Part shown: positions 2,179 to 32,655 of the stretch, piece by piece | How the letters are laid out: each line of letters begins with the position of its first letter | Numbering within the stretch: position 1 is the first letter of the stretch | DNA from: a virus | Strand: one strand, 5' to 3' | Length of the DNA: 64,000 nt | Virus record (IMG/VR): IMGVR_UViG_3300023179_000031 | Coordinates: 58,467-122,466 of that record | Position numbers and translations under genes: made by a program | Notes under the pieces: model-generated | Told to the model about the DNA's origin: nothing | Database searches by the model: none | What the model saw: only the letters and a program-made list of their open reading frames with translations

Positions 2179-3036
2179 ATGAACGACAAATTGTTAACTA
2201 TTGGCATGGCGACATATGACGATTATGATGGTGTTTATTTTACAACACAAGCATTAATGCTATATCATGATATTCTTAAAAATATAGATTACGAAATATT
2301 GATTATAGATAACAATCCACATGGTCAACACGCTTCTTTAGTTCGTGATTTGACCCATTGGATGAGCGGCAGAGGTAGATATATCCCATATGAAAACAAA
2401 ACAAGCACAGCAGTAAGAAATGAAATTTTTGTAAATGCGAATGGCAAATATACAATATCATTAGATTGCCACGTTCTTTTAGCTCCAAATAGCATAAATG
2501 CTCTATTGGATTATTATTCACAAAATCCAGACTGTAAGGATATAGTGCAGGGTCCAATGTTGTATGATGATCAAATTAATTATTCTACGCAGTTTGATCC
2601 CGTGTGGCGTGGAGATATGTATGGCATTTGGGGTTCTAATAAAGAGGCATACGAGTTAGGAAAACCATTTGAGATCCCAATGATGGGTCTTGGTACGTTT
2701 TCTTGTGAAACCAAGAACTGGAGAGGATTTAATAAGAGCTTCAAGGGTTTTGGTGGCGAAGAAGGATATATACATGAAAAATTCAGACTCAATGGTGGTA
2801 AAGCTATATGCTTGCCACAATTTAAGTGGACGCACAGATTTGGTAGACCAAATGGTGTAAAATATCCACTTGTGTTAGAAGATAGAATTTGGAACTATTT
2901 TGTTGGATGGCTAGAGCTAACACAAGATCCAGAACATAAAATGATTCGTGATACTTACGAACATTTTAAGAATAAGATACCACCAAATAGTATAGATAAT
3001 ATTTTACATCTAGCTATTAATGAGGTTTTGTCATGA
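2179..3036 (+). CDS. GT-A fold glycosyltransferase (GT2 / polypeptide-GalNAc-transferase-like)
   Basis: LTIGMATY, ILIIDN, RN, DCH (DxH), FGGEE and HRF motifs. Confidence 0.85.
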   Translation: MNDKLLTIGMATYDDYDGVYFTTQALMLYHDILKNIDYEILIIDNNPHGQHASLVRDLTHWMSGRGRYIPYENKTSTAVRNEIFVNANGKYTISLDCHVLLAPNSINALLDYYSQNPDCKDIVQGPMLYDDQINYSTQFDPVWRGDMYGIWGSNKEAYELGKPFEIPMMGLGTFSCETKNWRGFNKSFKGFGGEEGYIHEKFRLNGGKAICLPQFKWTHRFGRPNGVKYPLVLEDRIWNYFVGWLELTQDPEHKMIRDTYEHFKNKIPPNSIDNILHLAINEVLS

Positions 3037-4019
3037 TTGATTTGTTGCCAATCATCAAAGATTCTTTTTCTAAATATAAGATCAGAGATATGCAACTAGA
3101 CCCCAATGGTCTATGTAATGCTGGATGCTGGTTTTGCCCAGTTAAATATTTAGGAAACCCAAAAGAATCTCAAGGGCAAATGCCAGTAGATCTTCTTGAG
3201 AAAATATTTGCAAATATTGTATCTGAAAGAAGACCAGACGGTTTAGTTGATATGGGTTTCAACGGATTCTATACAGCGCATTATAATGAAATACTTATGT
3301 ACAAGTATTTTGAGGATTTGCTAAAACTGTGTAGAAAATACAATTTTATTTTTATGGTATTATCCAATGGAACAACTCTAACACCAAAAAAAACAGATTT
3401 ATTAGTAGAATATCAAGATGTTCTTTCTGGCGTTTGTTTAAATGTTCCATGTTTTGAGCCTGAATTATGGTCAAAACGTGTTAACCTATCTGAAAAACTA
3501 TTTCCACAGTTAGTGACCAATATAAAATACTTTATAGATCATCATCCAATGAAACTATCTATTCAAGTAAATGGGTGGAATAAAGAAAATAATTGGCTTG
3601 ACAAAGGTCCAAATTTTCCAGAAGACTTAACAGATGAAGAAAATGATAGGCAAGTAGAAATAGCAAAGTCTATGTTTCCACAAGCAAATGTATTTAAAGT
3701 ATTCCATTTAATTGATCGTGCTGGATATATTGCAGACGTAATTACTAATAAAAATGCAATAGATCGATATAACGGAAATAAACAAGTTATTGGATGTATG
3801 AACTCATATGAAACTGGCGGAAGACCAGTTGGTTGGGTACATGTCAATGCTCACGGTGAATGTTTTCTGTGTTGCAATGACTACACTATGGAAATAAAGT
3901 TTGGAGATTTCAAAACACAAGAATTAAAAGATTTTTGGGGTAAAGAAGATCATATAAATAAAATCAAAGAGTCTTATGAGACTATTTGTAAAAAATGTGC
4001 GTCAGCAAAATACTTATAG
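3033..4019 (+). CDS. Radical SAM protein with SPASM/twitch domain
   Basis: CNAGCWFC (CxxxCxxC), SNG, and C-terminal GC...CFLCCND...G...CKKC. Confidence 0.9.
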   Translation: MIDLLPIIKDSFSKYKIRDMQLDPNGLCNAGCWFCPVKYLGNPKESQGQMPVDLLEKIFANIVSERRPDGLVDMGFNGFYTAHYNEILMYKYFEDLLKLCRKYNFIFMVLSNGTTLTPKKTDLLVEYQDVLSGVCLNVPCFEPELWSKRVNLSEKLFPQLVTNIKYFIDHHPMKLSIQVNGWNKENNWLDKGPNFPEDLTDEENDRQVEIAKSMFPQANVFKVFHLIDRAGYIADVITNKNAIDRYNGNKQVIGCMNSYETGGRPVGWVHVNAHGECFLCCNDYTMEIKFGDFKTQELKDFWGKEDHINKIKESYETICKKCASAKYL

Positions 4020-4028
4020 GAGAATATA

Positions 4029-4889
4029 ATGCCAATTCCATCAAGAGATAAAAATGAAGATAAAAACTCATTCATGAGTAGATGCATGAGTGACGCAAAA
4101 ATGCGTGATGAATATAAGAGTGAACAACAAAGAGCGGCTATTTGTATGCAGCAGGCAACATCAGAGTGCGATTGCGTAGAAGCTGCTGATTTCAAAATGC
4201 AAGTAGAAGTCTATGGATATGAAGAAGATATTAATGAGGATAATTTTTACATCCCAACACAAGCAGAATATGAAGATTTTGGCGAAGAAACGGAGGAATG
4301 GGATGTTGCTGGAGAGAAACCGGGGTTGTGGGAAAACATCAGAAAGAAGAAGGAACGAGAAGGCAAAAACTATAAGCCAGCAAAGCCGGGAGATCCAGAT
4401 AGACCAGATAAAGATGCATTTAAAAAAGCTCAGTCTGGTGATAGCGAAATGGCTATTGAACAAATAATGAAAATGCACGACCAGCTTATGGAAGTAGTTG
4501 CTAAAATGCAAACAATGCAAATACCTGTAGAATTTCAGGATTGGACAAAAGACATGATCTCCAAGGCTGAAATATATGTTCAGAATGTATACGACTTTGT
4601 TAAGTATTATGAGCCGGGTAAATATGAAGAAGATAGTGCAGATGCTTCTGAATATCAAGGTCGCAAAGTAACTTTGAATAAGCCATTTAGAACATCAAAT
4701 GGCCCAAAGAAGTTTGCAGTATATGTTAAGAATGAAAGCGGAAATGTTGTTATTGTTCGATTTGGTGATCCAAATATGAAGATCAAAAAGAACATTCCAG
4801 AGCGAAGAAAGAGCTTTAGAGCTAGGCATAACTGTGACAATCCCGGTCCAAAGTGGAAGGCTAGATATTGGGCCTGCAAGAGTTGGTAA
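4029..4889 (+). CDS. Modular phage protein with C-terminal DUF6321-like domain
   Basis: C-terminal KKFAVYVK..VRFGDP..RRKSFRARHNC..ARYWAC; strong AGGAG RBS. Confidence 0.65.
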   Translation: MPIPSRDKNEDKNSFMSRCMSDAKMRDEYKSEQQRAAICMQQATSECDCVEAADFKMQVEVYGYEEDINEDNFYIPTQAEYEDFGEETEEWDVAGEKPGLWENIRKKKEREGKNYKPAKPGDPDRPDKDAFKKAQSGDSEMAIEQIMKMHDQLMEVVAKMQTMQIPVEFQDWTKDMISKAEIYVQNVYDFVKYYEPGKYEEDSADASEYQGRKVTLNKPFRTSNGPKKFAVYVKNESGNVVIVRFGDPNMKIKKNIPERRKSFRARHNCDNPGPKWKARYWACKSW

Positions 4890-4916
4890 ACATAATTCAA
4901 ATAAGGAATAAATAAC

Positions 4917-5438
4917 ATGACAAAACAATCAATAGAAAGTTTATTACAATCGCAGTCTCAAGATGTTGCTGGATATTCTAGCGATACCGTAATTGAGCTA
5001 CTTAAAAAATCACTAAACATTCACTGGCAGCAAACAACCGTTATGTCTGCACAAGCTGTACATCTTGATCGCTGGGGCTATAAGAAGCTTGCGGCAATTT
5101 TTAAAGAAGATGCACTACAAGAGCATCAACATGCTATGATTAATCTTGGTAGATTAGAGTTTTTCGACGCTGACTATCAACCGCTAACAGTATCGCCGCC
5201 AGTATGGACTAGGCATGATATTTTAGCAATGATTAACTACAACCTTGATTCGGTTCGCCAAGCCTCTGCTGCTGAAAGAGCTACAATCGTGGCAGCTAGG
5301 AGCGTTGGCGATGAATTAACGGCTAACGTAATGATTACTTTGCTACAAGGCTCAGAGGATGGAATTGAGCTTTATGAAGGAATGTTGAAGCTTATTGAGC
5401 AAATGGGTCTTGACAACTTCCTAACGCTACAGGTATAA
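4917..5438 (+). CDS. bfr: Bacterioferritin-like protein (ferroxidase centre degenerate)
   Basis: WGYKKLA, ExxH and C-terminal LIEQMGLDNFL align without gaps to the Bfr helices. Confidence 0.8.
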   Translation: MTKQSIESLLQSQSQDVAGYSSDTVIELLKKSLNIHWQQTTVMSAQAVHLDRWGYKKLAAIFKEDALQEHQHAMINLGRLEFFDADYQPLTVSPPVWTRHDILAMINYNLDSVRQASAAERATIVAARSVGDELTANVMITLLQGSEDGIELYEGMLKLIEQMGLDNFLTLQV

Positions 5439-5451
5439 TTGCCTGTCGGCA

Positions 5452-5475
5452 TTTTTGTTGGTTGGACGGTATAAT
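5452..5475 (+). promoter_or_regulatory. Possible promoter upstream of dnaE-N (TATAAT -10 box)
   Basis: TATAAT at 5470-5475 in an 82-bp intergenic gap; no canonical -35 at 17 bp. Confidence 0.4.
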
Positions 5476-5520
5476 AGTTTGATAGCTACTGCATACACAT
5501 TGAATTGACAAGGAAAGTAT

Positions 5521-7125
5521 ATGTTGAACTGGTTTCCTCTGAATAACTATACTCATTATAGTTTGCTAAAAGGTTTTTCTAAGCCAGAAGAATTGGCTGA
5601 TAAATGCAAAGAAAACGGTTATCCAGCCTGTGGTATTTGTGACTATAAGACAATATCTGGCGCTATATCTTTTTACAAAGCCTGCAAAAGTGCTGGCATA
5701 AAGCCTATAATTGGCTGTTCTTTTGATAAGTTCAAAGTTTTTGCTAAGAACAAGTCTGGATGGCATGACCTAATTGAATTAGTGTCATCTATAGATGAGA
5801 GTGGTGATTTATCAGAAGATTTATTTAGTAAGATCTTTGATAGAAAAAATCTCATTAAAATATCAAATGTTGCAAGTAAGTCTATGCCAGATAGTTATTA
5901 TGCAAATAAAGAGGACGCAAAGCTGCATAGAATACTTCTATGTTCAGACATGAAAACAACCCTACCAAAAATTAATAAGGCTATTAAGCAAGAAAAAAAC
6001 GCCAGCTTACTCATGGATAATCATGCAGACAAGCTAGATTATTTCCTATTTGATAAGTTTTATCTACTAGATAAAGAAGAATCTAAGGGACTAGAAACAA
6101 CTAAGCTAGAAGAGATTTACAATCAGTGCGAAGACTATGATATTTTAAGTAAGCCAAATCTTCCAAAGTTTGCTTGCCCAAACAATCAGTCAGAAGAAGA
6201 CTATCTTAAGGAACTTTGTCGCATTGGATGGAAGAATCTATTAATCGATAATGATAAAGTTTCTAAGCCAGAAGACAAGCAGAAATATCTAGATAGATTT
6301 AAAGAAGAGTTTGACGTTATTAAGGGTGCTAACCTGTTCGGATATTTTCTAATCGTTCATGATATTATACATTATTGCGAAAGTCAAGGTTGGCTTTGTG
6401 GTCCCGGCAGAGGTTCTGCTGCTGGATGTTTAATATCTTATCTAATTGGAATTACAAAGATTGATCCACTAGAGTTTGATCTTCTGTTTGCACGTTTTTA
6501 TAATGCCGGTAGAAATAGTGAAGATCATATTTCTTTGCCAGATATTGATATGGACGTTCCCGGTAACAAGAGGGATGAAGTTATAGCTTATCTGAAGGAC
6601 AAGTATGGACACGACCACGTTAGCCAAATGATTACATTCGGCAGATTACGCGGCAGAAGCGCAATTAAAGAAGTGTTACGAGTTAATGAAGCTTGTTCTT
6701 TTAGTGAAATGAACGCTATAACCAAAAGCGTACCAAACGAAGCTGAAATCTCAGATCAGCTTGCAGATATGGATGACGAAGAAAGATCTATTATTAGGTG
6801 GGCATTAATTAATAGGTCAAGTGACTTGAGAGATTTTTGCTATATCAATGATGATGGAAAACTAGAAGGAAACTATGCCGAATATTTTGAGCAAGCCATA
6901 AAGATTGAGGGTACATTTAAAACGCAGGGAAAACATGCTGCCGGTGTTGTTATCTCTGCTAAAAGATTGAATACGGTTTGCCCAATGGTAAAGCAGCGTG
7001 GATCGACTGAAAAGATTGCAGGACTTGAAATGTCAGACCTTGAAAGTCTAGGTCATGTCAAATTTGATATTTTAGGAATTACGCTCTTGGATAAATTGAT
7101 GTATATCCAGAAAACTTGTGTATAG
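5521..7125 (+). CDS. dnaE: DNA polymerase III alpha, N-terminal half (reduced PHP, palm, thumb)
   Basis: YSLLKG, GPGRGSAAG, FARF, PDIDMD, KHAAGVV and KFDILG; ends shortly after the third catalytic Asp. Confidence 0.95.
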   Translation: MLNWFPLNNYTHYSLLKGFSKPEELADKCKENGYPACGICDYKTISGAISFYKACKSAGIKPIIGCSFDKFKVFAKNKSGWHDLIELVSSIDESGDLSEDLFSKIFDRKNLIKISNVASKSMPDSYYANKEDAKLHRILLCSDMKTTLPKINKAIKQEKNASLLMDNHADKLDYFLFDKFYLLDKEESKGLETTKLEEIYNQCEDYDILSKPNLPKFACPNNQSEEDYLKELCRIGWKNLLIDNDKVSKPEDKQKYLDRFKEEFDVIKGANLFGYFLIVHDIIHYCESQGWLCGPGRGSAAGCLISYLIGITKIDPLEFDLLFARFYNAGRNSEDHISLPDIDMDVPGNKRDEVIAYLKDKYGHDHVSQMITFGRLRGRSAIKEVLRVNEACSFSEMNAITKSVPNEAEISDQLADMDDEERSIIRWALINRSSDLRDFCYINDDGKLEGNYAEYFEQAIKIEGTFKTQGKHAAGVVISAKRLNTVCPMVKQRGSTEKIAGLEMSDLESLGHVKFDILGITLLDKLMYIQKTCV

Positions 7126-7131
7126 TATTAC
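7118..7131 (+). promoter_or_regulatory. Putative phage late promoter (GTGTAT + AT-rich) for the HNH gene
   Basis: GTGTATAGTATTAC, the same motif seen upstream of structural genes; overlaps the dnaE-N stop. Confidence 0.5.
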
Positions 7132-7161
7132 GTCAAACTTTACACCCACTGGAGATTAACC

Positions 7162-7857
7162 ATGATTACTCATGAAAAATTAAAGCAAATGCTTCATTTA
7201 GAAAATAAGAGCCAAAGAGAAATATCACAAGAACTGGGCATTAGCGAGGCTTGCGTTTCGCAGTACGCTAAAAAATATGGATTAAGGAGAAAGCCAGAAG
7301 AAAGATATATTGGTAAAAGATTTGGAATATTAACGGGTAAAAAGGTTGTTGGTCAGGACGATTATTCTCATAATATGATTGAATGTGTTTGTGATTGTGG
7401 TAATACAATTGTCATTGTGTGCCACTCTTTAACAAGTGGTAATACAAAAAGCTGCGGGTGTGAAGCAAGAAAGCGTGGAAAAGATCGTGCAAACTATCGC
7501 GGTTATGAAAATATCCAACAAAGTTATTGGAGTAGTATAATTAAAGGTGCCGATAAAAGAAATTTAGAAATGTCTATTTCAGTTGAATATGCTTGGAGTC
7601 TATATGAAAAGCAAGGTAAAAAATGCGCTGTAACTGGAGTGCCAATATTTTTTCCACAAACAAGAAAAACTGCAAATAAATCGACAGCATCACTAGATAG
7701 AATAGATAATACAAAGGGCTACATTGAAGGAAACGTGCAATGGGTACATAAGAAAATAAATCAAATTAAAATGGATTTGACAATTGAAGATTTTTTTGAA
7801 TTATGCAAAAGCGTAGTTAATTATAACAATTTATTGGAGAAACAGAATGGCAAATAG
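7162..7857 (+). CDS. HNH-type homing endonuclease with N-terminal HTH and CxCxCG..SCGC module
   Basis: HTH (QREISQELGISEACVS), GKRFG..CVCDCG..KSCGC, and SLDRIDNTKGYIEGNVQWVH..IN. Confidence 0.85.
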   Translation: MITHEKLKQMLHLENKSQREISQELGISEACVSQYAKKYGLRRKPEERYIGKRFGILTGKKVVGQDDYSHNMIECVCDCGNTIVIVCHSLTSGNTKSCGCEARKRGKDRANYRGYENIQQSYWSSIIKGADKRNLEMSISVEYAWSLYEKQGKKCAVTGVPIFFPQTRKTANKSTASLDRIDNTKGYIEGNVQWVHKKINQIKMDLTIEDFFELCKSVVNYNNLLEKQNGK

Positions 7858-8527
7858 AGATTTTGTCGTGTTCGATTTTGAAACGGGAAGTAGGAATCCT
7901 CACAGAACTCAGCCAACACAAATTGCAGCATTAGCTATTGATGGTCGCAATCTATCTGTTAAGGGTCAATTTAATAGTGAGATTAAGCCCATATTTGAGG
8001 ATGAGTTAGCTATTGCCGCTGGGTTTGATCCACTAGAAGATGAGGCTTTAAAAATTACAGGAAAAACAAGAGAGGGTCTTGCTAATGCTCCATCTCTGAA
8101 GTCAGTGTGGTCTAAGTTTACAAAGTTTGTTGATCAGTATAACTGGAAGGGTGATTCTTTTTATGCTCCAATTCCAGTTGGATTTAACATTGTAGGTTTC
8201 GACTTAATTATTGTGAATAGGTTATGCAAGGAATTTGGCCCTTGGGATAAGGATAAAGAACATCAAAAGCTATTTAGCAAGGTGTACAAGGTGGATATAA
8301 TGGATAATGTCTTTCTATGGACAGAAGGTGATCCAAGTGTTAAGTCTATTAGCATGGATTCACTGAGGCAAAGAATGGGACTAAGTAAAGAAAATGCTCA
8401 CGACGCTTTGCAAGACGTTAAAGATGAGGCTAATATATTCATCAAGCTATTAAAAACACATAGGTCCGTGTATCAGAATATTACTTTTGAAAATGCGTTT
8501 GCCAACGGTGGATTATATGTCAAATAA
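7847..8527 (+). CDS. dnaQ: DEDDh 3'-5' exonuclease (DnaQ/epsilon-like)
   Basis: ExoI DFETG, ExoII GFNIVGFD, ExoIII HDALQD. Confidence 0.9.
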   Translation: MANRDFVVFDFETGSRNPHRTQPTQIAALAIDGRNLSVKGQFNSEIKPIFEDELAIAAGFDPLEDEALKITGKTREGLANAPSLKSVWSKFTKFVDQYNWKGDSFYAPIPVGFNIVGFDLIIVNRLCKEFGPWDKDKEHQKLFSKVYKVDIMDNVFLWTEGDPSVKSISMDSLRQRMGLSKENAHDALQDVKDEANIFIKLLKTHRSVYQNITFENAFANGGLYVK

Positions 8528-10097
8528 TGTAAATATTGATTATAACTGCAAAAAGACTTGGGGATTGTTTGCTGAAGGCAAGACCAAAGGGATCTTTCAG
8601 CTAGAAAGTAACCTTGGGAAATCATGGTCTAAAAAACTAGCTCCGACAAATCTAGAAGAGCTATCAGCATTGATTGCTATCATTAGGCCGGGAACTCTTA
8701 AAGCATTTGTCGATGGCAAGAGCATGACGCAGCACTATGTTGATAGAAAGCATGGTAGAGAAGAAGTAACTTATTTGCATGAATCTCTAGAAGAAATATT
8801 AAAGCCAACATATGGTGTGCTTGTGTACCAAGAGCAGTCAATGCGTATTGCACAAAAAGTTGCTGGATTTAATCTTCAAGAGGCTGACGTTTTACGCAAG
8901 GCAATCGGTAAGAAAAAGGCCGACCTCATGAATGAAGTAAAGAAGTCATTTATAGAGGGTTCTCAAAAAGTTGGAATAGTTACTAAAGAAGAAGCAGAGC
9001 AAATCTTTGGATGGATCGAAAAGTCTGCACGATATGCTTTTAATAAATCTCATAGCGTTTCATATGCAATGTGTTCGTATTGGAGTGCATATTATAAAGC
9101 GCATTACACTCCTCAGTTTTTTCTATCGTATCTACACTATGCAAATGAAAAGCAAGATCCACATAGAGAAATATATGAGCTTATCTCAGAGGCAAAATTA
9201 TTTGACATTCAATTAAGAACTCCAAATATTACAAATTTTAGTAACAAGTTTGTTCTTAGGGAAAACAATAAGATTTATTTTGGTGTAAAGGATATAAAGT
9301 CATTAACTGGCAAAACCGGCGATGCTCTTGAAGAAGCTATAAAACTAGCAGAGCAAGCATCTGGAAAAAAAATATCATCTTTTTCTTGGTTAGATGTTCT
9401 TGTATTTTTTAGTCCATATGTTAATTCTACATCTTTTAAAGCTTTAGCGTCTGTTGGATTTTTTAGGGGCTTTAAGGAAAAAGTATCTCGCAATAAAGCA
9501 TTGTATGATTATGATATATTTAAGACTTTAACAAAGGCTGAACAGACTTGGATATCAAACAACTACGAAGCTAAAAAGTGGACATCATTCGTAGAGTGCC
9601 TTAAAGACTTGGCACCAACTAAAAAAGAGGGCGGTGGCACAAGCAAAGTTGACAGAAAACAGGCTATTACAAATGAGATACAGCTACTTATTGATCCACC
9701 ATACGATCTTGAAGATGATGCAGGCTGGATTATTGATCAAGAAACAAAGTTCTTAGGTTGTCCGGTAACATTGTCTAGAATTGAAACATCTGATAGCTCT
9801 GCCGCAAACACTACTTGCAAAGAAATTATCAATGGTAAAAAGGGTAAGGATTTGTGTGTTGTGGCAAATATACAAAGGTTATCAGATTATACGATAACCA
9901 AGGGCGAATCAAAGGGGCAAATCATGTCATTTCTAACCATAGAAGATGAATCATGTATGCTTGATAGCGTGATTGTGTTTCCTCAAGTAAAAGAGAAATA
10001 TAGATATGTATTATACGAAGGTAACAATCTAATTTTTTGTGGATCTGTAACAGGTCAAGACAATGCGTTTATTGTCAACAAGATTCATGAAATTTGA
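8517..10097 (+). CDS. dnaE: DNA polymerase III alpha, C-terminal half (fingers, HhH, OB)
   Basis: GIFQLES, RPG, TYGVLVYQEQ, LRKAIGKKK, YAFNKSHSVSY and OB-fold MSFLTIED; ATG at 8517. Confidence 0.93.
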   Translation: MSNNVNIDYNCKKTWGLFAEGKTKGIFQLESNLGKSWSKKLAPTNLEELSALIAIIRPGTLKAFVDGKSMTQHYVDRKHGREEVTYLHESLEEILKPTYGVLVYQEQSMRIAQKVAGFNLQEADVLRKAIGKKKADLMNEVKKSFIEGSQKVGIVTKEEAEQIFGWIEKSARYAFNKSHSVSYAMCSYWSAYYKAHYTPQFFLSYLHYANEKQDPHREIYELISEAKLFDIQLRTPNITNFSNKFVLRENNKIYFGVKDIKSLTGKTGDALEEAIKLAEQASGKKISSFSWLDVLVFFSPYVNSTSFKALASVGFFRGFKEKVSRNKALYDYDIFKTLTKAEQTWISNNYEAKKWTSFVECLKDLAPTKKEGGGTSKVDRKQAITNEIQLLIDPPYDLEDDAGWIIDQETKFLGCPVTLSRIETSDSSAANTTCKEIINGKKGKDLCVVANIQRLSDYTITKGESKGQIMSFLTIEDESCMLDSVIVFPQVKEKYRYVLYEGNNLIFCGSVTGQDNAFIVNKIHEI

Positions 10098-12124: not shown

Positions 12125-13233
12125 AAATATTGTATATAGCACATTACAAAGAGGGTAGTGGGTGGTCTAGGGCTGCTCTAGATTATATCTTAGCTTTAGA
12201 TCAAAATGGTTTTGATGTAGTTTGTAGGAATGTACAGTTAACATCTACTGAGCATCCCGTACCAGAGAGAATACATGAATTAGAATCTAAACCTTTAACT
12301 GGGGTTGATGTTTGCATACAGCATCTTCTTCCTCATCATATGATTGGGACTAAAAAATTCAAAAAAAATATCGGCGTTTTTGTTAGCGAGACAGATAGTA
12401 TAAAACACACATCTTGGTTTACATTTCTAGCAAACGTTGATCAAATTTGGGTTCCAAATTCTGATAATAAACTAAGGCTAACTACGGATGGTTTTAAAAA
12501 TGTTGAAGTTGTTCCATACGCTTTTGATCTATCAAATTATAAAGACAGGCCAAAAATAAATCTTTATAGTGCTAACAATAAGTTCAAGTTTTATTATATT
12601 GGCGATCTAAATGATAGAAAGAATTTAGCAGGAATTATAAGGGCATTTAATAGTGAGTTTTGTAATGGTGAGCCAGTAAGTCTAGTTATTAAAATAAGAA
12701 AGTATGGCGTACAACCAAAGCAATTGCATGATGCTTTCGTGAAGTTTTCTCAGCAGATAAAATCTCAGTTAAGAATTCATAAGAAGCTAGAACACTATCC
12801 ATCAGAGATAGTAATAACAGCAGATGCTGGAGATGATGTTATACATAGTTTACATAATACATGTGATTGTTTTGTTGGTCTTTCTCATGGCGAAGGCTGG
12901 TCTATACCAGCGTTTGAATCAATGTGCTATGGTAAAACTCCCATATGTAGCAATGAAGGTGGACCAAAAGAATTTATAGACGCTAATGATATTAATACCG
13001 GCTCTTTAATTGATGGGGTATACTCTGTCTGTTCTCAGAATGATCCAGCTTTTGGCGATATTTTTACAGGTAGAGAAAACTGGTTTCAACCAAGCGAACA
13101 ATTAGCCAAAAAAGCTATGAGGTTTTACTACGAAAATTCTCACAAGATAGATAGATCTATCGGATTAAAAACAGCAGAAAAGTTTAGTTATCAAAATATA
13201 GCTAAGAAAATAAAGGATGTTCTAGATGAGTAA
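12121..13233 (+). CDS. GT-B (GT4) glycosyltransferase
   Basis: SGWS, RKN and EGWSIPAFESMCYG; ATGA overlap with upstream gene. Confidence 0.9.
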   Translation: MKILYIAHYKEGSGWSRAALDYILALDQNGFDVVCRNVQLTSTEHPVPERIHELESKPLTGVDVCIQHLLPHHMIGTKKFKKNIGVFVSETDSIKHTSWFTFLANVDQIWVPNSDNKLRLTTDGFKNVEVVPYAFDLSNYKDRPKINLYSANNKFKFYYIGDLNDRKNLAGIIRAFNSEFCNGEPVSLVIKIRKYGVQPKQLHDAFVKFSQQIKSQLRIHKKLEHYPSEIVITADAGDDVIHSLHNTCDCFVGLSHGEGWSIPAFESMCYGKTPICSNEGGPKEFIDANDINTGSLIDGVYSVCSQNDPAFGDIFTGRENWFQPSEQLAKKAMRFYYENSHKIDRSIGLKTAEKFSYQNIAKKIKDVLDE

Positions 13234-24001: not shown

Positions 24002-24003
24002 AG

Positions 24004-27000
24004 TTAACTCCATGAACTAAGTTTGTCTGATCCTTCGATTCCCTGAGAATTCATTTCTTGTATCATGTCTACATTATTTCTAGCTACAACAGACATATTT
24101 GGATGATCTTCAAAAGAAGCTGGTGATTTGTCTTCGATTAAATTTGTTGATGCAGAATTGTAAAATTTAAAACCAAAAATTTTAGCATTATGATTAAGAA
24201 ATTCAATGCCTTGTATAAGTAGATTTGAAGACATCATTGATGCTTCTATGTGGCGTTCGCTTAGTTGCGTATTAACGCCGCCCTGTAAGTTTGTTCCATC
24301 ATCAACTAAGAACGAGTTGACATTTTGTGGAAGAACAGAAATAACAGAAGTATCTACGGGTTGTGATGCTAAACCTCCAGTAACTAGATCTGTATTCATG
24401 CTATCATATCTCATAGAATTTTCAATATTTTTGTAAAGTTGTTGATAATTAATATTTGATTGATTTTTACCAATACCTTTTCTAATTAAAGCATTTTTTT
24501 CGTCTCTTTGTTTTTGTCTATTTCTACTTATATTAGAAATATTATCTAATTTTTGTTTTTGCATTTTTCCAAAACTGGCTGTATACAAGTCCATTTTATA
24601 TGTAGTTTTTATTCCAGCTTGAGATACATCTACAGATATATTAGTTACTAATGGGCCTGCATTACCAAGAGATCTTGCCAAGGCTACTCCACTTGGAGCC
24701 GCTGGAACAACAAAGCCACCCCTTTCAGAAACAAGCATAGCGCTAGTACCAAACGCTGAATGCATTTGTCCAACAGCGTTCATTAAATCAAATCCATTAT
24801 AATTCCAAGGTGCCAAATTCTCATCTTTAACAAATTCTAATTTTCCACCAACTTGGTCTGTAGATACATAAGATGATAACCAAGGACCATAGCATCTTTC
24901 AGATGATCTCAATGGTATAGCCACTAAATCTGGATAAACTGGCGACGGAGATGCGGCAGTAATTTTATTCGGTAAAGAAAATGTAAGACCCTCAAAAGTT
25001 TTGTCAATTGCGGCTTCAGCGTCTGGGCCAAGACCTTCAGAAGACAATGTGCTATGAATATCTCTTTGTGTTCCGCTTGGTAATGCTGGAACATCAAAAC
25101 CATCCACACCTTGGACTGTATCTAAAAGTAAAAAGTGTTTTAAATTTGCTGGAAATACTTTTTCTTTAAGGCTATCTCTATATCTTGAAGTTACTGTTGG
25201 AAATATTCTATTTGGCAGCGTGATCAAAGCGTAAACATTGTCTGTGTCTAATTCAAAGTTTGGATTAACAACGGTAATGCTCGAATTTGTTATTGGTGCC
25301 GCCGTTGTTGTAACATAATTCGGTGGATTTGTAGTCGAGGTTGTTGTAGTTGTTGCTTCAACGGCTTGACTTATAATATCAAAAATTCTTACATTTGATG
25401 AATAATCTGACTCTCCGGGGATTGGACTATATAATCTCTGAATATATCTAAAACTATCTTTATTAGTACATTTTATTGGATCAAATATTTTATTTGGAAT
25501 AGAAAGAGTGGTAGTATATTGAACTTCTCTTCCATGCACTTTTATTGATCGAACAGAGCTTTTTGGTGGCATGTATAATGTTTCACTAACATCACATTTT
25601 ACGAAAGCAACACATCCAGAAGGCGCTAAATCTGCCGAAGATGGATCAAACTTGTCTCCGGTGCGTGAAGAATTTTCTAATTGATAAGATATATCTGGAA
25701 TAAAATATCCAGCCTTTATAACCTGTTGAGTAAAACTATCTTTGCTTATACCATCAAATGATAGTTGTTCACTATTGTCAAATCTTACATAAGCAGAAAT
25801 TCTAGAATTTTCATTTACAAAATTTGTTGCGTCCAGTGGTATAAGTCCAGCATTTATACCATAATTAGATCCAGCACTTGAAGCTAATAAGTCGAATGGA
25901 TAATATCCACCTTGATTATCTGGAGTATAATTAGATTCATATTGTTCTGTTATTGGATTATAATTTATTTTTAATGCTCCATAATATGGATCTAAACCGC
26001 CAGACAATTGATAGTTGTTCATTCCACTGCTATCTGGCAAATCGTCAAGATTGTCACGATGCAATGGATCATTATTAATAGATCTTCTCATGAATCCAAA
26101 TGGGCCTTTTCGGATTTCCATAGATGAGCCAACACCAACGGTAGACACTGTTGTGCTATAATTAGGATTAACCCTCTTAGGAATTTTTACTAAGAATTTT
26201 TTGCCTAAACATTCATCTGCTATATTTTTTAAGAAGTTGTAAACACGGTGCGCATTTTGATTATTTCTTTGGGCGGTTCTTTGAGATCCAGCAACTATGG
26301 GTCCAAGTTGGTTAAGCATTTTTTCTATCAAAGCAATGTTTCTAGTTCCACTATTTAATGAAGTTTTGATAAATTGATAGAATTCTTTTTCTGCCTCGCT
26401 TTTTCCAGCGACATTATTATCTAATTCTTTAGATATTGAATTTAATACTCCAACAAATTCTTTATCATTTGTTGTATTTCTGAGTGCTGTAAGTTGAGTA
26501 AATAACTTAGTGCCAATAGATGTTAAATTTGCCAAACCGGCTTGAGGTATGCCAATTTGAGTAGCTCTTTTATAATACAACGGATAACCATAAGGTGGAT
26601 TGCATGGGCTTTTTGGTATACCATTTGCGTCATATCCGTTTTGGTCGGATGTCCAAACCGATCTAGGAACTGTAACCGCATAATTACTGGATACTTCTAT
26701 TGGAATATTAATACCAATGGCTGCAAACTCATTTACAGTATTGTTTATACTAGCAATATCTCTTATATCATTACTTTCAACAGACTCCATATACAATTCA
26801 TTATACATCATTAAAAATTCTGACCATCTTTCAAAGGATATTGCAGCCGCCCTCAATTCCATTTCTGTGGCAACGTAATAGTTTCCAACACCATTAGCAT
26901 TAAGAGTGCTTGAATCTAGTAATATTTGCTGATATGATCCAAAACCCTTTGGTATTGTTACAGCTTTATTTCCAAGCATACCATAATATGGTAATACTTG

Positions 27001-28539
27001 TTGTGCAAATGAAGCTTCTAATGACCACTGTGGGTATCCGCTTGTGCGCGATGTTTTGTCTCTATCTGTATTAGTTGTAAAATAATGCATATCAACTTCT
27101 TGCGCACCAACCAAGAACTTGTCTGTAACAGTGTTTGCAAGCTCGTATCCAACATCTCTATTTTCAATAGGAAGTGTTAATGAGTCTAAATATGTCTTAA
27201 TAGCAGTTAATGACGGTGGTGACGATTTATCTATAGCGATTACTTTGATAATGCCAGCAATTATTTCTTGTGGTTTGTTTCCTGCAATTTTACCATTATT
27301 GTAGTTGTATAATGCTTGACAAGCTGGATGATTTATTACCGGAAGCAAAGTTACAAATAATTCCCAATTTAATATTTCACAAATTTCTAAACATAGATCT
27401 AAAACATTTATCTGATCATAATCTAAAAAGTAAAACTGTGGTAAAACAGGAAGACCAGTTAAATCAACAACATAATTCATCCCTCTAAAATTAATATATC
27501 CTCCAAAACCAGCATCTTTATATTCTTGAGGCATTTGACCGTCAAAACCAGACATGGCATTTATAGCTTGCACTATTCTGTAATACGGTATACCCTGTTG
27601 ACATCTCCTAGATCTACCAGTTCCTGTGATTGGGAATTTTGTTGGAAAAGTACCAATTGCTGATTGATTAAATTCAAATTTTACAGAATCTTGATATAAA
27701 GTATTTGAAGATGGAATTCCTCGCGGATAATACATGTCTGTTCCAACAAAACCGTATGATCCATCACTATTTTTGATTTTTTTTAACACAGACGCATTTG
27801 ATCCACCGTAATAACTTTCATATTGTGATGAATTAAATTCTAAGAATCCAAAAATATTAAGTATATTTTGTCCACCATATGTTGAGCCTGCGTAATTATT
27901 AAGAATAAGCTGAACATTTGATAAAACTTCTCTTGGATCAACAATTTGCGCTGAATATATTGGTGTTCCCGCTGAACTTTTATTTTGAGTGAATGTTTGT
28001 AATATCCCACCAAAAGTAAAATGATCTCTAGCATAATTACCTTGAGATGAAGTAAAATCATATAAATCATCAAATGGTTTTAAGAATGCATCTTGAACAG
28101 AAGCTCTTTTTGCCCCAAAACTAAAAAATACCGGACTGCCAACTGGCGGTGGCATGAATTGATCTTTAACGCCATTATGGTATACATCTTGACCTCTACC
28201 AAGGCCAGATCCATCAGACTTATTATATTCATCTTCAACAAGCTGTATTCCAAGAGTTGAACTACTATCACCAAATCCAGCGTTTACACTAAAACTAGAT
28301 ATAGATGCGCCAAGAAATGTTTGTTGTTCATATGTTGGATACGTACCGCCAGCAACACTAAGATCTGTTAAAGATAATGAATTTGGATCAACTGTCGTGG
28401 TTGTAGTTGTTGTAGTTGTTGATGTAGTTGTTGTAGTAGTAGTTGTTGTAGTAGTAGTTGTGGTGGTTGTAGAAGTTGTAGCACCATTTGGATCTGGAGT
28501 CGTGTTTATTGGTGGGTATGGTGGAATAAATAATGTCAT
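24004..28539 (-). CDS. Large tail tip/hub-like protein with N-terminal poly-Thr tract
   Basis: 1511 aa downstream of the TMP; C-terminal VTNISVDVS..GIKTTY is typical of hub proteins. Confidence 0.6.
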   Translation of the reverse strand: MTLFIPPYPPINTTPDPNGATTSTTTTTTTTTTTTTTTTSTTTTTTTTTVDPNSLSLTDLSVAGGTYPTYEQQTFLGASISSFSVNAGFGDSSSTLGIQLVEDEYNKSDGSGLGRGQDVYHNGVKDQFMPPPVGSPVFFSFGAKRASVQDAFLKPFDDLYDFTSSQGNYARDHFTFGGILQTFTQNKSSAGTPIYSAQIVDPREVLSNVQLILNNYAGSTYGGQNILNIFGFLEFNSSQYESYYGGSNASVLKKIKNSDGSYGFVGTDMYYPRGIPSSNTLYQDSVKFEFNQSAIGTFPTKFPITGTGRSRRCQQGIPYYRIVQAINAMSGFDGQMPQEYKDAGFGGYINFRGMNYVVDLTGLPVLPQFYFLDYDQINVLDLCLEICEILNWELFVTLLPVINHPACQALYNYNNGKIAGNKPQEIIAGIIKVIAIDKSSPPSLTAIKTYLDSLTLPIENRDVGYELANTVTDKFLVGAQEVDMHYFTTNTDRDKTSRTSGYPQWSLEASFAQQVLPYYGMLGNKAVTIPKGFGSYQQILLDSSTLNANGVGNYYVATEMELRAAAISFERWSEFLMMYNELYMESVESNDIRDIASINNTVNEFAAIGINIPIEVSSNYAVTVPRSVWTSDQNGYDANGIPKSPCNPPYGYPLYYKRATQIGIPQAGLANLTSIGTKLFTQLTALRNTTNDKEFVGVLNSISKELDNNVAGKSEAEKEFYQFIKTSLNSGTRNIALIEKMLNQLGPIVAGSQRTAQRNNQNAHRVYNFLKNIADECLGKKFLVKIPKRVNPNYSTTVSTVGVGSSMEIRKGPFGFMRRSINNDPLHRDNLDDLPDSSGMNNYQLSGGLDPYYGALKINYNPITEQYESNYTPDNQGGYYPFDLLASSAGSNYGINAGLIPLDATNFVNENSRISAYVRFDNSEQLSFDGISKDSFTQQVIKAGYFIPDISYQLENSSRTGDKFDPSSADLAPSGCVAFVKCDVSETLYMPPKSSVRSIKVHGREVQYTTTLSIPNKIFDPIKCTNKDSFRYIQRLYSPIPGESDYSSNVRIFDIISQAVEATTTTTSTTNPPNYVTTTAAPITNSSITVVNPNFELDTDNVYALITLPNRIFPTVTSRYRDSLKEKVFPANLKHFLLLDTVQGVDGFDVPALPSGTQRDIHSTLSSEGLGPDAEAAIDKTFEGLTFSLPNKITAASPSPVYPDLVAIPLRSSERCYGPWLSSYVSTDQVGGKLEFVKDENLAPWNYNGFDLMNAVGQMHSAFGTSAMLVSERGGFVVPAAPSGVALARSLGNAGPLVTNISVDVSQAGIKTTYKMDLYTASFGKMQKQKLDNISNISRNRQKQRDEKNALIRKGIGKNQSNINYQQLYKNIENSMRYDSMNTDLVTGGLASQPVDTSVISVLPQNVNSFLVDDGTNLQGGVNTQLSERHIEASMMSSNLLIQGIEFLNHNAKIFGFKFYNSASTNLIEDKSPASFEDHPNMSVVARNNVDMIQEMNSQGIEGSDKLSSWS
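28394..28482 (-). repeat. Imperfect ACN trinucleotide run encoding about 28 Thr/Ser
   Basis: TTSTTTTTTTTTTTTTTTTTSTTTTTTTTT with mixed ACA/ACT/ACC/ACG codons. Confidence 0.9.
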
Positions 28540-28872: not shown

Positions 28873-31800
28873 TTATTTTTTTGGTGGCGTAAGACTGTTT
28901 TTACTAACATTTGTTTTATTATCTTCTCGTACTTTAAAATTAGGATCTTCAAAATTTGCTACGATTGTTGGTAATAAATTGGATTTTACAATACCCGGAG
29001 TTTTAGTGTCATTATTTACTGGAAGTTGATATGTTCCTACTGGTGGTTTTGGTATCCTTGTTGTTGTTGAAGTTGTTGTAATCGTTGTAATACCAGTTGG
29101 AATAATTGGTGCTAAAGTTGTTGTTGTTGTTCTTGTAAAGATGTTATTTTGTGGTTTTATTGTGGTTGTAGTGATGATGGTTGGCATTGATGTGGTATAT
29201 ATTGGCTGAAATATTGTCGTGGTAATATAGGGGTTCAGTGGGTTTCGTGTTGTGGTTGTGGTGGGAGCTTTAGTAGTTGTCGTACTTGTGGTTGTCGTTG
29301 GAATGGCTGTACCAATGAAAGAAACTGTCTGAATATTAATTTCATTTTTTGGCGGAATTGTCACATATATGATATAACTATAAGTTAAAGTTCCATTTAT
29401 TATTGTTTTGTTAAGTACAGCCTCGACTGGAAAAGAACAATGAACACTTGGTATAATATCAAAACCATATCCATTATCTGGCCTTAAAAATATTTCACCA
29501 AGTCTAGCTCGCTTACCAACAGATAATTCGCTTTCTAATGTTAGCGATTCCGTGTTTAATTTACAGTTTTGAATAATATTTGTAAGACGAACAGAAAAAG
29601 TGTTTTTTTCTGGAGGAATTGTTGTTGTCGTTGTTGTTGTAATAGTAGTTGTAGTAGGTATAGGTATTGCTTTGCCACGTATAGTTAATTTTTGATAGTT
29701 ATTGTCTCCGATTTTTGGGATTGTTCCATATACATAAACATAATAGTAACATTTTCCACCAAAACATTCTGTTTGAAGGCTTGCATTCAGCGGTGCAAAC
29801 GCATTGAGAATTGATAGATTTTCTAGTCTAATTTCATATCCATCGTCTGGATATATAGAAACTAATGCAAGTTGAAAACCGGCTCCAATTGGTAACAAAG
29901 AAGACGCTAACGTTGTATGACTTAGCGTTGCGTTTTCAATCTCGTCAATAAATTCTACAGAAAAAATATTTGATGGTGGTCTGGTTGTTGTGGTTGTGGT
30001 AACAGTAGTTGTTGTGGATGTAGTTGTTGTGGTAGATGTTGCGGGAGCGACAGTGGTGGTTGTAGTAGATACTACGGGAGCATTGGTAGTTGTTGTAACA
30101 ATTGGGGTTGCTTTCCCGCGTATAGTTAATTTTTGATAGTTTTTATCTCCAATATTTGGAATTATACCATCCATGTTAATGTCATAATAATATTTGCCAT
30201 TTACATACGATATATTAATTGACGCATTCAGGGGTGGAGATCTATTAAGAATAGATACATTTTCTGCTTTAATTTCATATCCTTTATCTGGATATATGGA
30301 AACAGATGGAATTGTAAAAGCTTGACCGGGACTTAAAAGCGGTGACGATACATTTGTCTTGCTTAGTGTTGCATTTGCAATTTCATTTACAAGCTCTACA
30401 GAAAACGAGTTGTTTGGCGGTTGAGTTGTAGTCGTTGTTGTAGTAATGGTTGTAGTTATAGCCCCATCGCCCTTTACAACTAAATTAATAGGTATGTTCA
30501 AAGTAACATCTTGATCTAAAAATTTACTCAAGTATGGGTATGTATTATAATTATCATAATCATATTGGACAAGATATAACCGCGTGTAACCTGTTGCCAG
30601 TTTTGCACTTAAAAGTCGAATTCTACCAATAATAAGATTGTTTGCATTTCGAATATACAAAATTAACCCCGCTGGGGATGAAAATATTTCGTATGGGCTA
30701 GATGGGTTAAATTGAACAAAATATTGAATTTCTGCTACAATTGATCCAGGTTCCACAGATGCAGAAGAAAATGTTTGAGTTTTATTGCCAAAAAAATAAA
30801 CAATATCGCTTGCATCAGCGCCATTTTGAAATTTAGCAGATGGATAAAAATTAACTGTAATATTCTTTGGTGGAGAAATTTGTTTAAATATTATCTTTAT
30901 GGCAACGTTGAAAGATCTAGCAACGTCTAATCGCGGAGTAGATGTGGATGCGTCGGCGGAACCTTCTACAACAAAAGAGCGATCTACTGGATCAAATTTA
31001 ACTATACCAGTATCAACAATTTGTCCAGCAGAATTTGTTAAATAAAAATTTTGTCCATTTGGATATCGCACTTCTTTAATTTGTAATAATGAATTTTGTA
31101 TTGAATAGTATATCTTTTGAGTACTAAAAAATTTATTTCTATTTCCACATGCTGATAGGGCGTTATTAACTATTGTAAAAGGTACTGTAGTATCACTTAT
31201 CTGTGTTCCATCTTCAAATTCAGCAGAAGTAATATAATTTAATGTAACGCACGGTGTCTCTCCGGGTTTTGAAGTTGTTGTAGTTGTTGTAGTTGTTGTA
31301 GTTGTGGTTGTTGATGTAGTGGTAGTAGTTATGGTAGTTGTTGCTGCCGGTATAGTGGTTGTAGTAATAGCGCAAGTGGATCCATTAATTTCTATAGTAA
31401 TGTCGCCGTCACCATCAAACCAAGGTAATTCATAGAAAGTACTAGTTAAAATATACCTAGTTCCTAGCGCTGTGTCTGTATCAAAATTAAATGTAGGAGT
31501 ATTATTATATGAAAAAGTTAGTGCTTGTGATGGATTTCTTTTTCCAAAACTATAAAATCTTGCAGATAAACTTGACCTCATTTCTCCGCTAGTAGAATTA
31601 TATCTACAATCAAAAGTATAGCCATTATTTGCAGTAATTGTTATTGAAACAGATGATCTTGGTATTGTCCAAGGCGGTCCAGAAGATGAATCTGCAACAA
31701 TTTTAGATCTAGACACTCTAATGGTAGAGTTTGGAACATTATTAACATATTCAATGTTTAGTGTACGCAATTTAGGTGCGGCGGTTGTTGTAGTGGTTGT

Positions 31801-32655
31801 TGTCGTGGTGGTTGTTGGTCCTTTATATTTTAGGATCAATTTTATTGGTACAGTGTAAGATCTATTTATATCTAGATTAGCTGGCCAATTAATCCCATTT
31901 ATTGTGCTGATTATAAATCCACGAAATCCATAATCTATTTTAAGTGTACCTATGTCGTTTAAGCGTGAATCACGAATAGTAACAGTCTGTGAATTAGGAT
32001 AATTTATGTATAATACTTCGTAGTTGGTGTCCGCTAACGTGTATTCAGCAATATTATTTAAGGAGCTAGTATCGCCACAAAGTGTTATTGAATTATTACC
32101 CTTCCAAGATATTGCGCCCCGTATTGGTGTTCCATTTTCTAATTCTGATGATGGAGTCAGGTCTATGGTTACGCATTTAGGTTTTACAGTTGTGGTTGTT
32201 GTGGTGCTAGTAGTAGAATTAATAATTATATCATAATAGCTTGCGCTGTTTAATATACCTTCATAATAACTATATGGTAATAATATTGAATTACAAGTTG
32301 ATGGTGATGGGTAGCCTATAGTCTTAATGGTTACACTTGCCCCAACAGCATAGCGAATATAAACTCTTCCATCTTGATCTTGCGCAAAATAAGTTTCATC
32401 GGCTATAATTGGATCAGTAGTAACAGTAAATTTATTAGATGCATAATAATCTGTAGACAAAGATGGCAAATTTGAAAAATTATATCTAAGATTAATGTTT
32501 CTAGATGAAGATATGTAAACTACAACATTAAATTCCCAATTTTTTGTTAAACATATTGATGGTATATCTCCTGTAATTTTAAACGAAATTACACCAGTGG
32601 CGCTATTTCCTTTTCTTTGAACATTTTTGGTTATAAGTCGAACTGAATACGCCAT
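28873..32655 (-). CDS. Mucin-like beads-on-a-string protein: ~100-aa beta domains separated by poly-Thr linkers
   Basis: At least 7 Thr tracts; duplicated domains such as FSVE..EI.NATLS..SIYPD.GYEI..YQKLTIRGKA. Confidence 0.75.
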   Translation of the reverse strand: MAYSVRLITKNVQRKGNSATGVISFKITGDIPSICLTKNWEFNVVVYISSSRNINLRYNFSNLPSLSTDYYASNKFTVTTDPIIADETYFAQDQDGRVYIRYAVGASVTIKTIGYPSPSTCNSILLPYSYYEGILNSASYYDIIINSTTSTTTTTTVKPKCVTIDLTPSSELENGTPIRGAISWKGNNSITLCGDTSSLNNIAEYTLADTNYEVLYINYPNSQTVTIRDSRLNDIGTLKIDYGFRGFIISTINGINWPANLDINRSYTVPIKLILKYKGPTTTTTTTTTTTAAPKLRTLNIEYVNNVPNSTIRVSRSKIVADSSSGPPWTIPRSSVSITITANNGYTFDCRYNSTSGEMRSSLSARFYSFGKRNPSQALTFSYNNTPTFNFDTDTALGTRYILTSTFYELPWFDGDGDITIEINGSTCAITTTTIPAATTTITTTTTSTTTTTTTTTTTTTSKPGETPCVTLNYITSAEFEDGTQISDTTVPFTIVNNALSACGNRNKFFSTQKIYYSIQNSLLQIKEVRYPNGQNFYLTNSAGQIVDTGIVKFDPVDRSFVVEGSADASTSTPRLDVARSFNVAIKIIFKQISPPKNITVNFYPSAKFQNGADASDIVYFFGNKTQTFSSASVEPGSIVAEIQYFVQFNPSSPYEIFSSPAGLILYIRNANNLIIGRIRLLSAKLATGYTRLYLVQYDYDNYNTYPYLSKFLDQDVTLNIPINLVVKGDGAITTTITTTTTTTQPPNNSFSVELVNEIANATLSKTNVSSPLLSPGQAFTIPSVSIYPDKGYEIKAENVSILNRSPPLNASINISYVNGKYYYDINMDGIIPNIGDKNYQKLTIRGKATPIVTTTTNAPVVSTTTTTVAPATSTTTTTSTTTTVTTTTTTRPPSNIFSVEFIDEIENATLSHTTLASSLLPIGAGFQLALVSIYPDDGYEIRLENLSILNAFAPLNASLQTECFGGKCYYYVYVYGTIPKIGDNNYQKLTIRGKAIPIPTTTTITTTTTTTIPPEKNTFSVRLTNIIQNCKLNTESLTLESELSVGKRARLGEIFLRPDNGYGFDIIPSVHCSFPVEAVLNKTIINGTLTYSYIIYVTIPPKNEINIQTVSFIGTAIPTTTTSTTTTKAPTTTTTRNPLNPYITTTIFQPIYTTSMPTIITTTTIKPQNNIFTRTTTTTLAPIIPTGITTITTTSTTTRIPKPPVGTYQLPVNNDTKTPGIVKSNLLPTIVANFEDPNFKVREDNKTNVSKNSLTPPKK

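Follow-up and report, generated by a model that had tools for sequence, protein, structure and literature searches.

The stretch of DNA analysed here, called the window in what follows, comprises 64,000 nucleotides (bases 58467-122466 of the 122,466-base IMG/VR virus record IMGVR_UViG_3300023179_000031, which is estimated to be 77% complete) and has a GC content of about 34%. Its source is an uncultured aquatic phage of a lineage that is known from metagenomes only; the polymerase shows 26-35% identity among the 20 phage records listed, every record staying below 60%. The left part of the window is a plus-strand replication and nucleotide module with the gene order deoxynucleoside monophosphate (dNMP) kinase, PD-(D/E)XK nuclease, glycosyltransferase (GT), radical SAM/SPASM protein, 286-aa protein, ferritin-like protein, split DNA polymerase III (Pol III) alpha, single-stranded DNA-binding protein (SSB) and a cluster of GT4-type enzymes. 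A minus-strand operon runs from position 20431 to the right end and encodes large, mostly unassignable proteins with a few tail-fibre-like matches, among them three with threonine (Thr) tracts, termed proteins A, B and C (Table 1). The subject of this work is the glycosyltransferase encoded at 2179-3036, referred to as the GT, and its relation to proteins rich in Thr and Ser. A tblastn search with the GT against 50,697 GenBank phage records gave zero matches at E 1e-5.

At the level of domain searches the GT is unremarkable. Its sole Pfam domain is Glycos_transf_2 (PF00535; residues 10-118, E 1.2e-7, 32.3 bits against a gathering cut-off of 23.3), and NCBIfam likewise recognizes a generic GT2 enzyme only. 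The PHROGs search returned no family, and the Pfam domain Glyco_transf_7C, which matches 20-82% of the members in related Atlas clusters, has no match on the GT. The initial annotation had pointed to four motifs resembling those of the eukaryotic polypeptide GalNAc-transferases (family GT27), and all four were confirmed: LDCH (D96, H98), PMMGLGTFS, FGGEE (191-195) and HRF (H219-R-F). Residues D96, H98, G192, E194, E195, H219, R220 and F221 are invariant in a family alignment of 27 sequences, and the same catalytic-motif residues are invariant in a more distant set of 9 as well. A phmmer search of the PDB aligned GT residues 87-223 to GalNAc-T10 (2d7i) with an E-value of 0.24, which is not significant alone, and paired LDCH with LDSH, PMMGLGTF with PVMAGGLF, FGGEE with WGGEQ and H219 with the His of GHIYR. 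The GalNAc-T10 residues of LDSH and GHIYR that align to D96, H98 and H219 are presumably its Mn2+ ligands.

The relationship to GT27 became apparent in the fold. An AlphaFold (AF2) model of the GT reached a predicted local distance difference test score (pLDDT) of 94.5, and in a Foldseek comparison with the PDB all 34 listed matches (ranks 1-48) were GT27 polypeptide GalNAc-transferases, from human, mouse, fly and Toxoplasma, with E-values from 2.4e-15 to 5e-12 among the matches listed and TMq up to 0.73. When predicted viral structures were searched, one member of the GT family was matched at 2e-24, and ordinary viral GT-A proteins gave E-values of at least 2.2e-11 and TMq of at most 0.66. 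By fold, the GT thus groups with GT27 and not with glycosyltransferases acting on DNA or lipopolysaccharide (LPS); judging from the model, the structural guess of a GT27-like enzyme was right. In the model, secondary structure extends from residue 4 (start of the first strand) to residue 284 (end of the last helix), which leaves no room for a membrane anchor. Modelling the GT as a complex with Mn and residues 1-70 of protein B gave a score of 0.01, which weighs neither way on binding.

The GT belongs to a family of 2577 proteins at 90% clustering (1704 representatives at 50%), with relatives on at least 532 viral stretches. From two scans we pooled 141 GT-bearing viral loci, 87 of them with the synteny of the window (the core lineage) and 54 others in 16 non-core lineage groups, any two of which have at most one flanking protein in common. 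A tract was defined as at least six Thr, or at least eight Thr/Ser residues, in a row, and 14 loci with identical GT sequences were dropped. Among the remaining non-core loci, 11 of 38 have a tract in the open reading frame (ORF) immediately upstream of the GT (position -1), compared with 12 of 455 ORFs at the other positions within +-8; position +1 carries one in 0 of 40. The enrichment at -1 corresponds to an odds ratio of 15 (Fisher test, p 9e-8, an optimistic value as the loci are related). All 11 upstream tract ORFs lie on the same strand as the GT, and 10 of them end within 55 bp of its start or overlap it. They form 8 families without SEG-masked BLAST similarity to each other, and several, of 84-344 aa, are almost pure mucin-like repeats. 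A conservative test used one representative per group, the locus with most ORFs, and was conditioned on the tract ORFs present per locus. Here, tracts were found at +-1 in 5 of the 16 groups where 1.24 were expected (p 0.003), and at +-2 in 6 of 16 where 2.20 were expected (p 0.008).

In several non-core groups the GT gene forms part of a fibre module and comes right after a Thr/Ser-rich gene (for example in loci L012/13/14, where the upstream ORF overlaps the GT start, L066/67, L076, L073, L295/L308, L298, L300, L305, L312, L333 and L340). In three large records every run of eight ACN codons lies less than 1 kb upstream of the GT: 11/11 in G036 (201 kb, complete), 9/9 in G037 (205 kb, complete) and 15/15 in G063 (140 kb). 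For 22 non-core loci, ORFs that lie up to two genes to either side of the GT and measure at least 100 aa were scanned for domains (71 ORFs, with one edge ORF dropped). Fibre-type domains were Mtd_N (4), LamG (3), PTR (2), collagen (2), fn3 (2) and S74 chaperone (1); enzymes were GT32-like (3), sulfotransferase (2), GT2 (2), GT29-like (1) and methyltransferases (3). The 12.8-kb contig L305 holds a cassette at 4802-7900 consisting of a mucin-like ORF, the GT, a 214-aa ORF and a GT29 sialyltransferase-like ORF. The mucin-like ORF has 344 aa with T70, (TS)n, PTTTVA and TEPPG repeats, and the GT29-like ORF matches PF00777 above cut-off (E 2.6e-13), with matches in 0/14 control genomes. A poly-Thr ORF at L013 8347-10005 carries an FGE-sulfatase-type domain (E 1.7e-16), a fold that is also used by variable receptor-binding proteins; this ORF lies immediately upstream of the GT in two complete 200-kb phages.

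The linkage extends to bacteria. The GT has 385 matches in bacterial genomes or metagenome-assembled genomes (MAGs), with 43-58% identity among the 80 loci kept. Many bacterial or metagenomic members are domains of 500-1350-aa proteins that also contain an N-terminal HprK-like region (matched weakly and below cut-off, at E 1.6e-4 to 7e-4), additional GT2 or GT25 domains, or TPR repeats; an N-terminal extension of about 320 aa is present in 33 of the 75 bacterial loci in which the GT ORF was found. Of the 66 bacterial loci with a -1 neighbour, 6 have a tract ORF there, against 7 of 592 ORFs elsewhere (odds ratio 8.4, p 8e-4). In two of these six loci (L085, L089) the GT stands alone, and the contig may be phage DNA binned into a MAG. 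Near the HprK-like-GT fusions we found a family of small proteins (100-250 aa; 27 BLAST hits) with a conserved LPAHA(A/Q)(T/S) N-terminal region and a beta-rich middle, and many members end in T/S/P-rich tails (L092 6237-6911, L127 4286-4888, L162 6417-7019 and L111 203-946, for example). Their hosts are Desulfobulbaceae, Gammaproteobacteria and other MAGs. PF14907 nucleotidyltransferases also neighbour bacterial GT homologues. According to PMC8498205, HprK homologues and nucleotidyltransferases phosphorylate and glycosylate Ser of lasso peptides (paeninodin, pseudomycoidin). By analogy, the HprK-like/PF14907 pairing would be consistent with peptide-directed chemistry, and we regard it as a lead. 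In Acidobacteria MAGs (L129 6461-7960, L154 3193-7986) the GT homologues adjoin genes for an eCIS-core-domain protein and an AAA ATPase, which suggests a link to contractile injection system loci.

Within the window, the best candidate substrate is protein C, with 17% Thr. It is built like beads on a string, with about seven modules of 107-275 aa, three of them paralogous, and poly-Thr linkers between them. The initial annotation had described three large proteins with long Thr tracts, which holds for proteins B and C; protein A has short runs only. The ends given there for A and C, 24001 and 32655, are ATG starts within the longer frames listed in Table 1. The Thr-tract codons are mixed (ACA, ACT, ACC, ACG) and close to the genome-wide Thr usage of 0.45/0.34/0.12/0.09, and the period-3 DNA arrays at the tracts are only 71-89% matched. 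The tracts therefore point to selection on the amino acid rather than to slippage, as had been claimed from the mixed ACN codons. The label 'tail-region' for the three proteins rests on their position in the long minus-strand operon with tail-fibre-like genes (phrog_11355, E 1.9e-7), and none of the three received an assignment from Pfam, PHROGs or a PDB sequence search; for protein A the latter gave only antibody Fab chains at E-values of at least 0.0017. The model of protein A has a pLDDT of 81.3 and no Foldseek match in the PDB at E <= 0.001. Its Thr tracts fall in segments with pLDDT below 50, loops modelled as disordered, as expected for accessible linkers. Directly after its first Thr run lies a Gly8 run (residues 70-77, window 23781-23804, minus strand), a CCG period-3 array on the plus strand, in a segment modelled as disordered. 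An Atlas search with protein B gave scores of 0.84, a lead only.

Upstream of the window, the same genome encodes four more poly-Thr proteins at 33542-44284 (L083:13542-19937, L084:1446-5284). They carry Mtd_N, six RCC1 repeats, fn3 and LamG, and by these domains they appear to be fibre or adhesin-like; such domains are shared with GT neighbours in the non-core lineages. A 166-aa ORF among these fibre genes looked sulfotransferase-like by eye and was dismissed as a candidate, with no Pfam match and no BLAST match in the viral loci.

In its own lineage the GT lies in a different setting. The typical order in the first 80 viral loci is dNMP kinase, nuclease, GT, 286-aa protein, (ferritin), Pol III alpha N, exonuclease, Pol III alpha C, SSB and GT4a-b-c, and the 286-aa protein follows the GT directly in 82 of 84 loci. 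Given this partner and the synteny conserved in 87 of the 141 pooled loci, the GT is therefore a core early-module gene in this lineage. The 286-aa protein showed no similarity to any bacterial neighbour of GT homologues. The radical SAM/SPASM gene was rejected as an obligate partner because only 1 of 80 related loci (L054) has it; it is also absent from the complete relative G034, and its best NCBIfam matches are weak models of peptide-maturase type. The ferritin-like gene occurs in 10 of 80 related loci and is absent from G034. The exonuclease sits between the Pol III alpha halves throughout the lineage, and the helix-turn-helix (HTH) gene was matched there in some loci and elsewhere in G034. 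The glycan cluster was present as initially described, with Pfam confirming three GT4s (PF00534 E-values of 1.8e-9, 2.4e-12 and 3.6e-18) and an RgpF-like protein; the nucleotidyltransferase-like protein is matched weakly. GT4a is found in all 32 core-lineage loci with room for it, and the RgpF-like protein has no orthologue in G034. Overall the genome carries at least 8 GT-type genes, including a GT92-like gene, a DUF5672 gene and another GT4 outside the cluster. The two giant ORFs of the structural operon have orthologues in G034 with 36% (3875 aa) and 59% (2401 aa) identity over the aligned parts; neither was assigned to a family, no Pfam scan of the two having been made.

Table 1. Features of the window discussed in the text; positions count from the first base of the window.
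Feature	Position	Strand	Remarks
GT	2179-3036	+	GT-A glycosyltransferase, soluble, 285 aa, GT27-like fold; AGGA 9 bp upstream of ATG
Radical SAM/SPASM protein	3033-4019	+	ATG overlaps GT stop (ATGA)
286-aa protein	4029-4889	+	charged, function unassigned; conserved downstream neighbour of the GT
Ferritin-like protein	4917-5438	+	between GT region and polymerase
Pol III alpha, N-terminal	5521-7125	+	PHP + NTPase
HTH protein	7162-7857	+	between Pol III alpha halves
RNase T-like exonuclease	7847-8527	+	between Pol III alpha halves
Pol III alpha, C-terminal	8487-10097	+	finger
GT4a	10463-12124	+	GT4-type, 553 aa, PF00534
GT4b	12085-13233	+	GT4-type, PF00534
GT4c	13226-14212	+	GT4-type, PF00534
143-aa protein	14209-14640	+	no assigned function; inside glycan cluster
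Nucleotidyltransferase-like protein	14637-15377	+	sugar-1-phosphate nucleotidyltransferase-like (weak): DUF6564; TIGR03992 E 1.5e-8, far below cut-off
285-aa protein	15374-16231	+	no assigned function; inside glycan cluster
RgpF-like protein	16224-17000	+	rhamnan synthesis F; PF05045 E 6.5e-11
157-aa protein	16963-17436	+	no assigned function; end of glycan cluster
Protein A	20477-24013	-	1178 aa; called start 24001; T/S runs of 9 and 5 residues
Protein B	24004-28539	-	1511 aa; candidate substrate tracts: T/S run of 29 residues (residues 21-49) and 8-residue run
Protein C	28873-32664	-	1263 aa; ATG at 32655; 12 runs of 5-20 residues
Giant ORF	34213-45840	-	3875 aa; structural operon
Giant ORF	45862-53067	-	2401 aa; structural operon

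The GT27-like fold, together with the position of the gene directly behind Thr/Ser-rich genes, leads us to propose that the GT probably sugar-coats such proteins, and on balance we favour the reading that it is a prokaryotic or phage counterpart of mucin-type O-glycosylation. The GT would act as a small, soluble, cytoplasmic and metal-dependent GT-A enzyme with a DxH motif and a distal His. Most likely it would move the first sugar from a uridine diphosphate (UDP)-sugar onto Thr/Ser hydroxyls of disordered Thr/Ser-rich tracts, and its acceptor proteins would be made during infection. In the phage studied here, the natural substrates would be the poly-Thr linkers of proteins C and B and the four upstream fibre-like proteins (Mtd_N/RCC1/fn3/LamG). 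The modified proteins may reside in the virion, and the glycan may be extended by the GT4 cluster or by other GTs of the genome. We hold a wider version more tentatively, as a possibility towards which we do not yet lean: that a large prokaryotic and phage family of GT27-like glycosyltransferases acting on Ser/Thr of polypeptides primes 'mucin' tracts, both those of phage fibres and those of small surface proteins of bacteria, that in some phages it forms a cassette with GT29-like or sulfotransferase genes, and that it may be kin of the catalytic domain of the eukaryotic polypeptide GalNAc-transferases.

Several observations weigh against O-glycosylation of Thr/Ser-rich tracts by the GT. Some concern the enzyme itself. 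There is no significant sequence similarity to GT27 members (phmmer E 0.24 for 2d7i; 13-18% identity), a profile of the GT family retrieves from the PDB no more than TarP's generic N-terminal half (7e-8), and Pfam detects no ricin-type lectin domain in the 285 aa. The GT would work like a GT27 catalytic domain; its fold is GT27-like and the motifs align, yet no sequence match is significant, and we therefore call it GT27-like and do not file it as a member of GT27. Others concern the linkage. Kinship among the loci means that the Fisher p-value overstates their independence, and in 8 of the 16 non-core groups no tract ORF was found within +-5 genes of the GT. Among the 87 loci with the window's synteny, 0 of 1753 ORFs within +-10 kb of the GT carry a Thr tract. 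Nothing ties the GT4/RgpF cluster to the glycan made by the GT. Comparative support for the idea of O-glycosylation is real and independent; the evidence would still have to be called circumstantial.

Co-occurrence across whole records adds to these points. For poly-Thr phages we drew 80 viral loci with an ACN x12 pattern, chose 50 in contigs of at least about 18 kb and searched 33 records. Only three contained a GT relative (two strong, one weak at 1.6e-11) and 30 did not; among the records at least 90% complete it was 0 of 4. For GT-bearing phages we searched 29 records, chosen as the longest contigs plus the first scan's non-core loci other than L014 (12 of 13). An ACN x8 tract was present in 17 of the 29, including 5 of the 7 that are at least 90% complete, and absent from 12. 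The expected co-occurrence of GT and poly-Thr proteins was borne out as gene linkage in unrelated phage lineages and bacteria, and either of the two can occur without the other. Two genomes with the window's synteny, G034 and G035 (both 100% complete), keep the GT and have no ACN x8 tract; a search of them with a WCN x8 pattern returned TCN-rich strings, which may be acidic tracts of the opposite strand. Only one (TS)n ORF occurs in G034, where protein C and the four upstream poly-Thr fibre-like proteins have no orthologues; the GT, GT4a-c, the nucleotidyltransferase-like gene and further genes of the cluster are retained there. Any tract at all was found in 6 of 81 orthologues of protein A and 13 of 120 of protein B, the longest measuring 9 residues. 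The Thr tracts are therefore evolutionarily labile, and proteins A and B cannot be the conserved reason for GT retention.

That genomes almost devoid of Thr tracts keep the GT would fit an enzyme that, jointly with the GT4/RgpF/nucleotidyltransferase cluster, makes or modifies a glycan not attached to protein: LPS, capsule or teichoic acid of the host, for instance, or a lipid-linked intermediate. Its purpose could be, for example, a superinfection block or a surface change; poly-Thr would then be a plain flexible linker and the fibre adjacency the usual placement of 'moron' genes. The generic GT2 assignment by Pfam and NCBIfam, the number of GT-type genes in the genome, the place of the GT in the early replication module of this lineage, far from structural genes, and the bacterial fusions to GT2/GT25 domains typical of polysaccharide synthesis all agree with this. 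However, the GT has no membrane segment, its best fold matches are protein-acting GT27 enzymes and not GT2 enzymes of LPS or teichoic acid synthesis, and the enrichment concerns only position -1 and, there, Thr/Ser-rich ORFs rather than fibre genes generally, with the same -1 pattern in non-phage bacterial loci. We consider a non-protein glycan unlikely.

A protein acceptor need not belong to the virion. The start of the radical SAM/SPASM gene overlaps the GT stop, and the GT might, perhaps with this enzyme, glycosylate a host factor or a small secreted peptide or one resembling peptides that are made on ribosomes and modified after translation (RiPPs). The bacterial homologues with an HprK-like domain and PF14907 neighbours, a pairing known from lasso peptides (PMC8498205), and the small T/S-tailed proteins encoded next to bacterial GT genes point the same way. 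The rarity of the radical SAM gene in related loci and its absence from G034 speak against it, as do the linked phage Thr/Ser-rich ORFs, which often have fibre domains or lie between fibre genes; we judge a non-virion target improbable. Glycosylation of phage DNA bases, a hypermodification against restriction, is suggested by the conserved order dNMP kinase, PD-(D/E)XK nuclease and GT beside the split Pol III alpha, and would be very surprising. We reject it because a hydroxymethylase was not found: no ThyA-type enzyme is present in this record (77% complete) or in two complete relatives. ThyX is present (E 1.3e-46), and a dCMP-deaminase-like ORF was recognized by eye only. The fold matches are protein GTs, and the GT of 54 of the 141 loci is not part of any replication module.

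How would mucin-type O-glycosylation by the GT compare with known systems? To our knowledge, mucin-type O-glycosylation in which GT27 enzymes take the first step counts as a trait of eukaryotes. With the GT27 enzymes (human GalNAc-T2, 2ffu/6nqt; GalNAc-T10, 2d7i) the GT shares the GT-A catalytic fold (TMq 0.72-0.73), the DxH motif with distal His, an xGGE motif that resembles the Gal/GalNAc-T motif (WGGEN type) and aligns with it and, presumably, disordered Thr/Ser-rich tracts as acceptors. Unlike them, it has neither a ricin-type lectin domain nor a type II membrane anchor, measures 285 aa and would work in the bacterial cytoplasm rather than in the Golgi. Cytoplasmic O-glycosylation of Ser/Thr-rich repeats by soluble GTs encoded beside the substrate gene is known from the serine-rich-repeat adhesins of Gram-positive bacteria. 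Their priming enzyme GtfA/GtfB is a GT-B (GT4) O-GlcNAc transferase, followed by GT2/GT8 extenders, whereas the candidate primer of the phage is a GT-A enzyme with a GT27-like fold.

We know of phage self-glycosylation for a few mycobacteriophages only, with unrelated enzymes. In Che8, Corndog and Myrna, phage-encoded GTs modify the phage's own structural proteins, namely capsid and tail-tube subunits, and the hosts are Actinobacteria (as described in PMC12363180 and PMC12582341). The likeness lies in a phage GT acting on the phage's own proteins, which is a prediction in our case. The differences are that no sequence relation to the Che8 gp110 / Corndog gp38 type was found (tblastn, E 1e-5), that the hosts are others and that the targets here would be poly-Thr linkers; the passages on them in the same two papers report no GT27-like fold for the mycobacteriophage enzymes. 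Lasso-peptide tailoring resembles the bacterial GT homologues in the HprK-like domain and PF14907 neighbours (PMC8498205); in contrast, no lasso-peptide machinery was seen and the phage GT lacks an HprK-like domain. A full-text literature search, the coverage of which excludes most subscription journals, found no description of such a phage or bacterial GT family.

If mucin-type O-glycosylation by the GT and its relatives holds true, thousands of uncultured aquatic phages and several hundred bacteria, among them cable bacteria, rhizobia and Acidobacteria, would decorate their fibres or surface proteins with mucin-like glycan brushes. Adsorption, resistance to proteases, adhesion to organic particles and the way grazers or immune systems recognize them would all be affected. 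A soluble, lectin-free polypeptide glycosyltransferase of 285 aa would also become available for bacterial glyco-engineering, and the family would bear on the origin of the GT27 catalytic domain.

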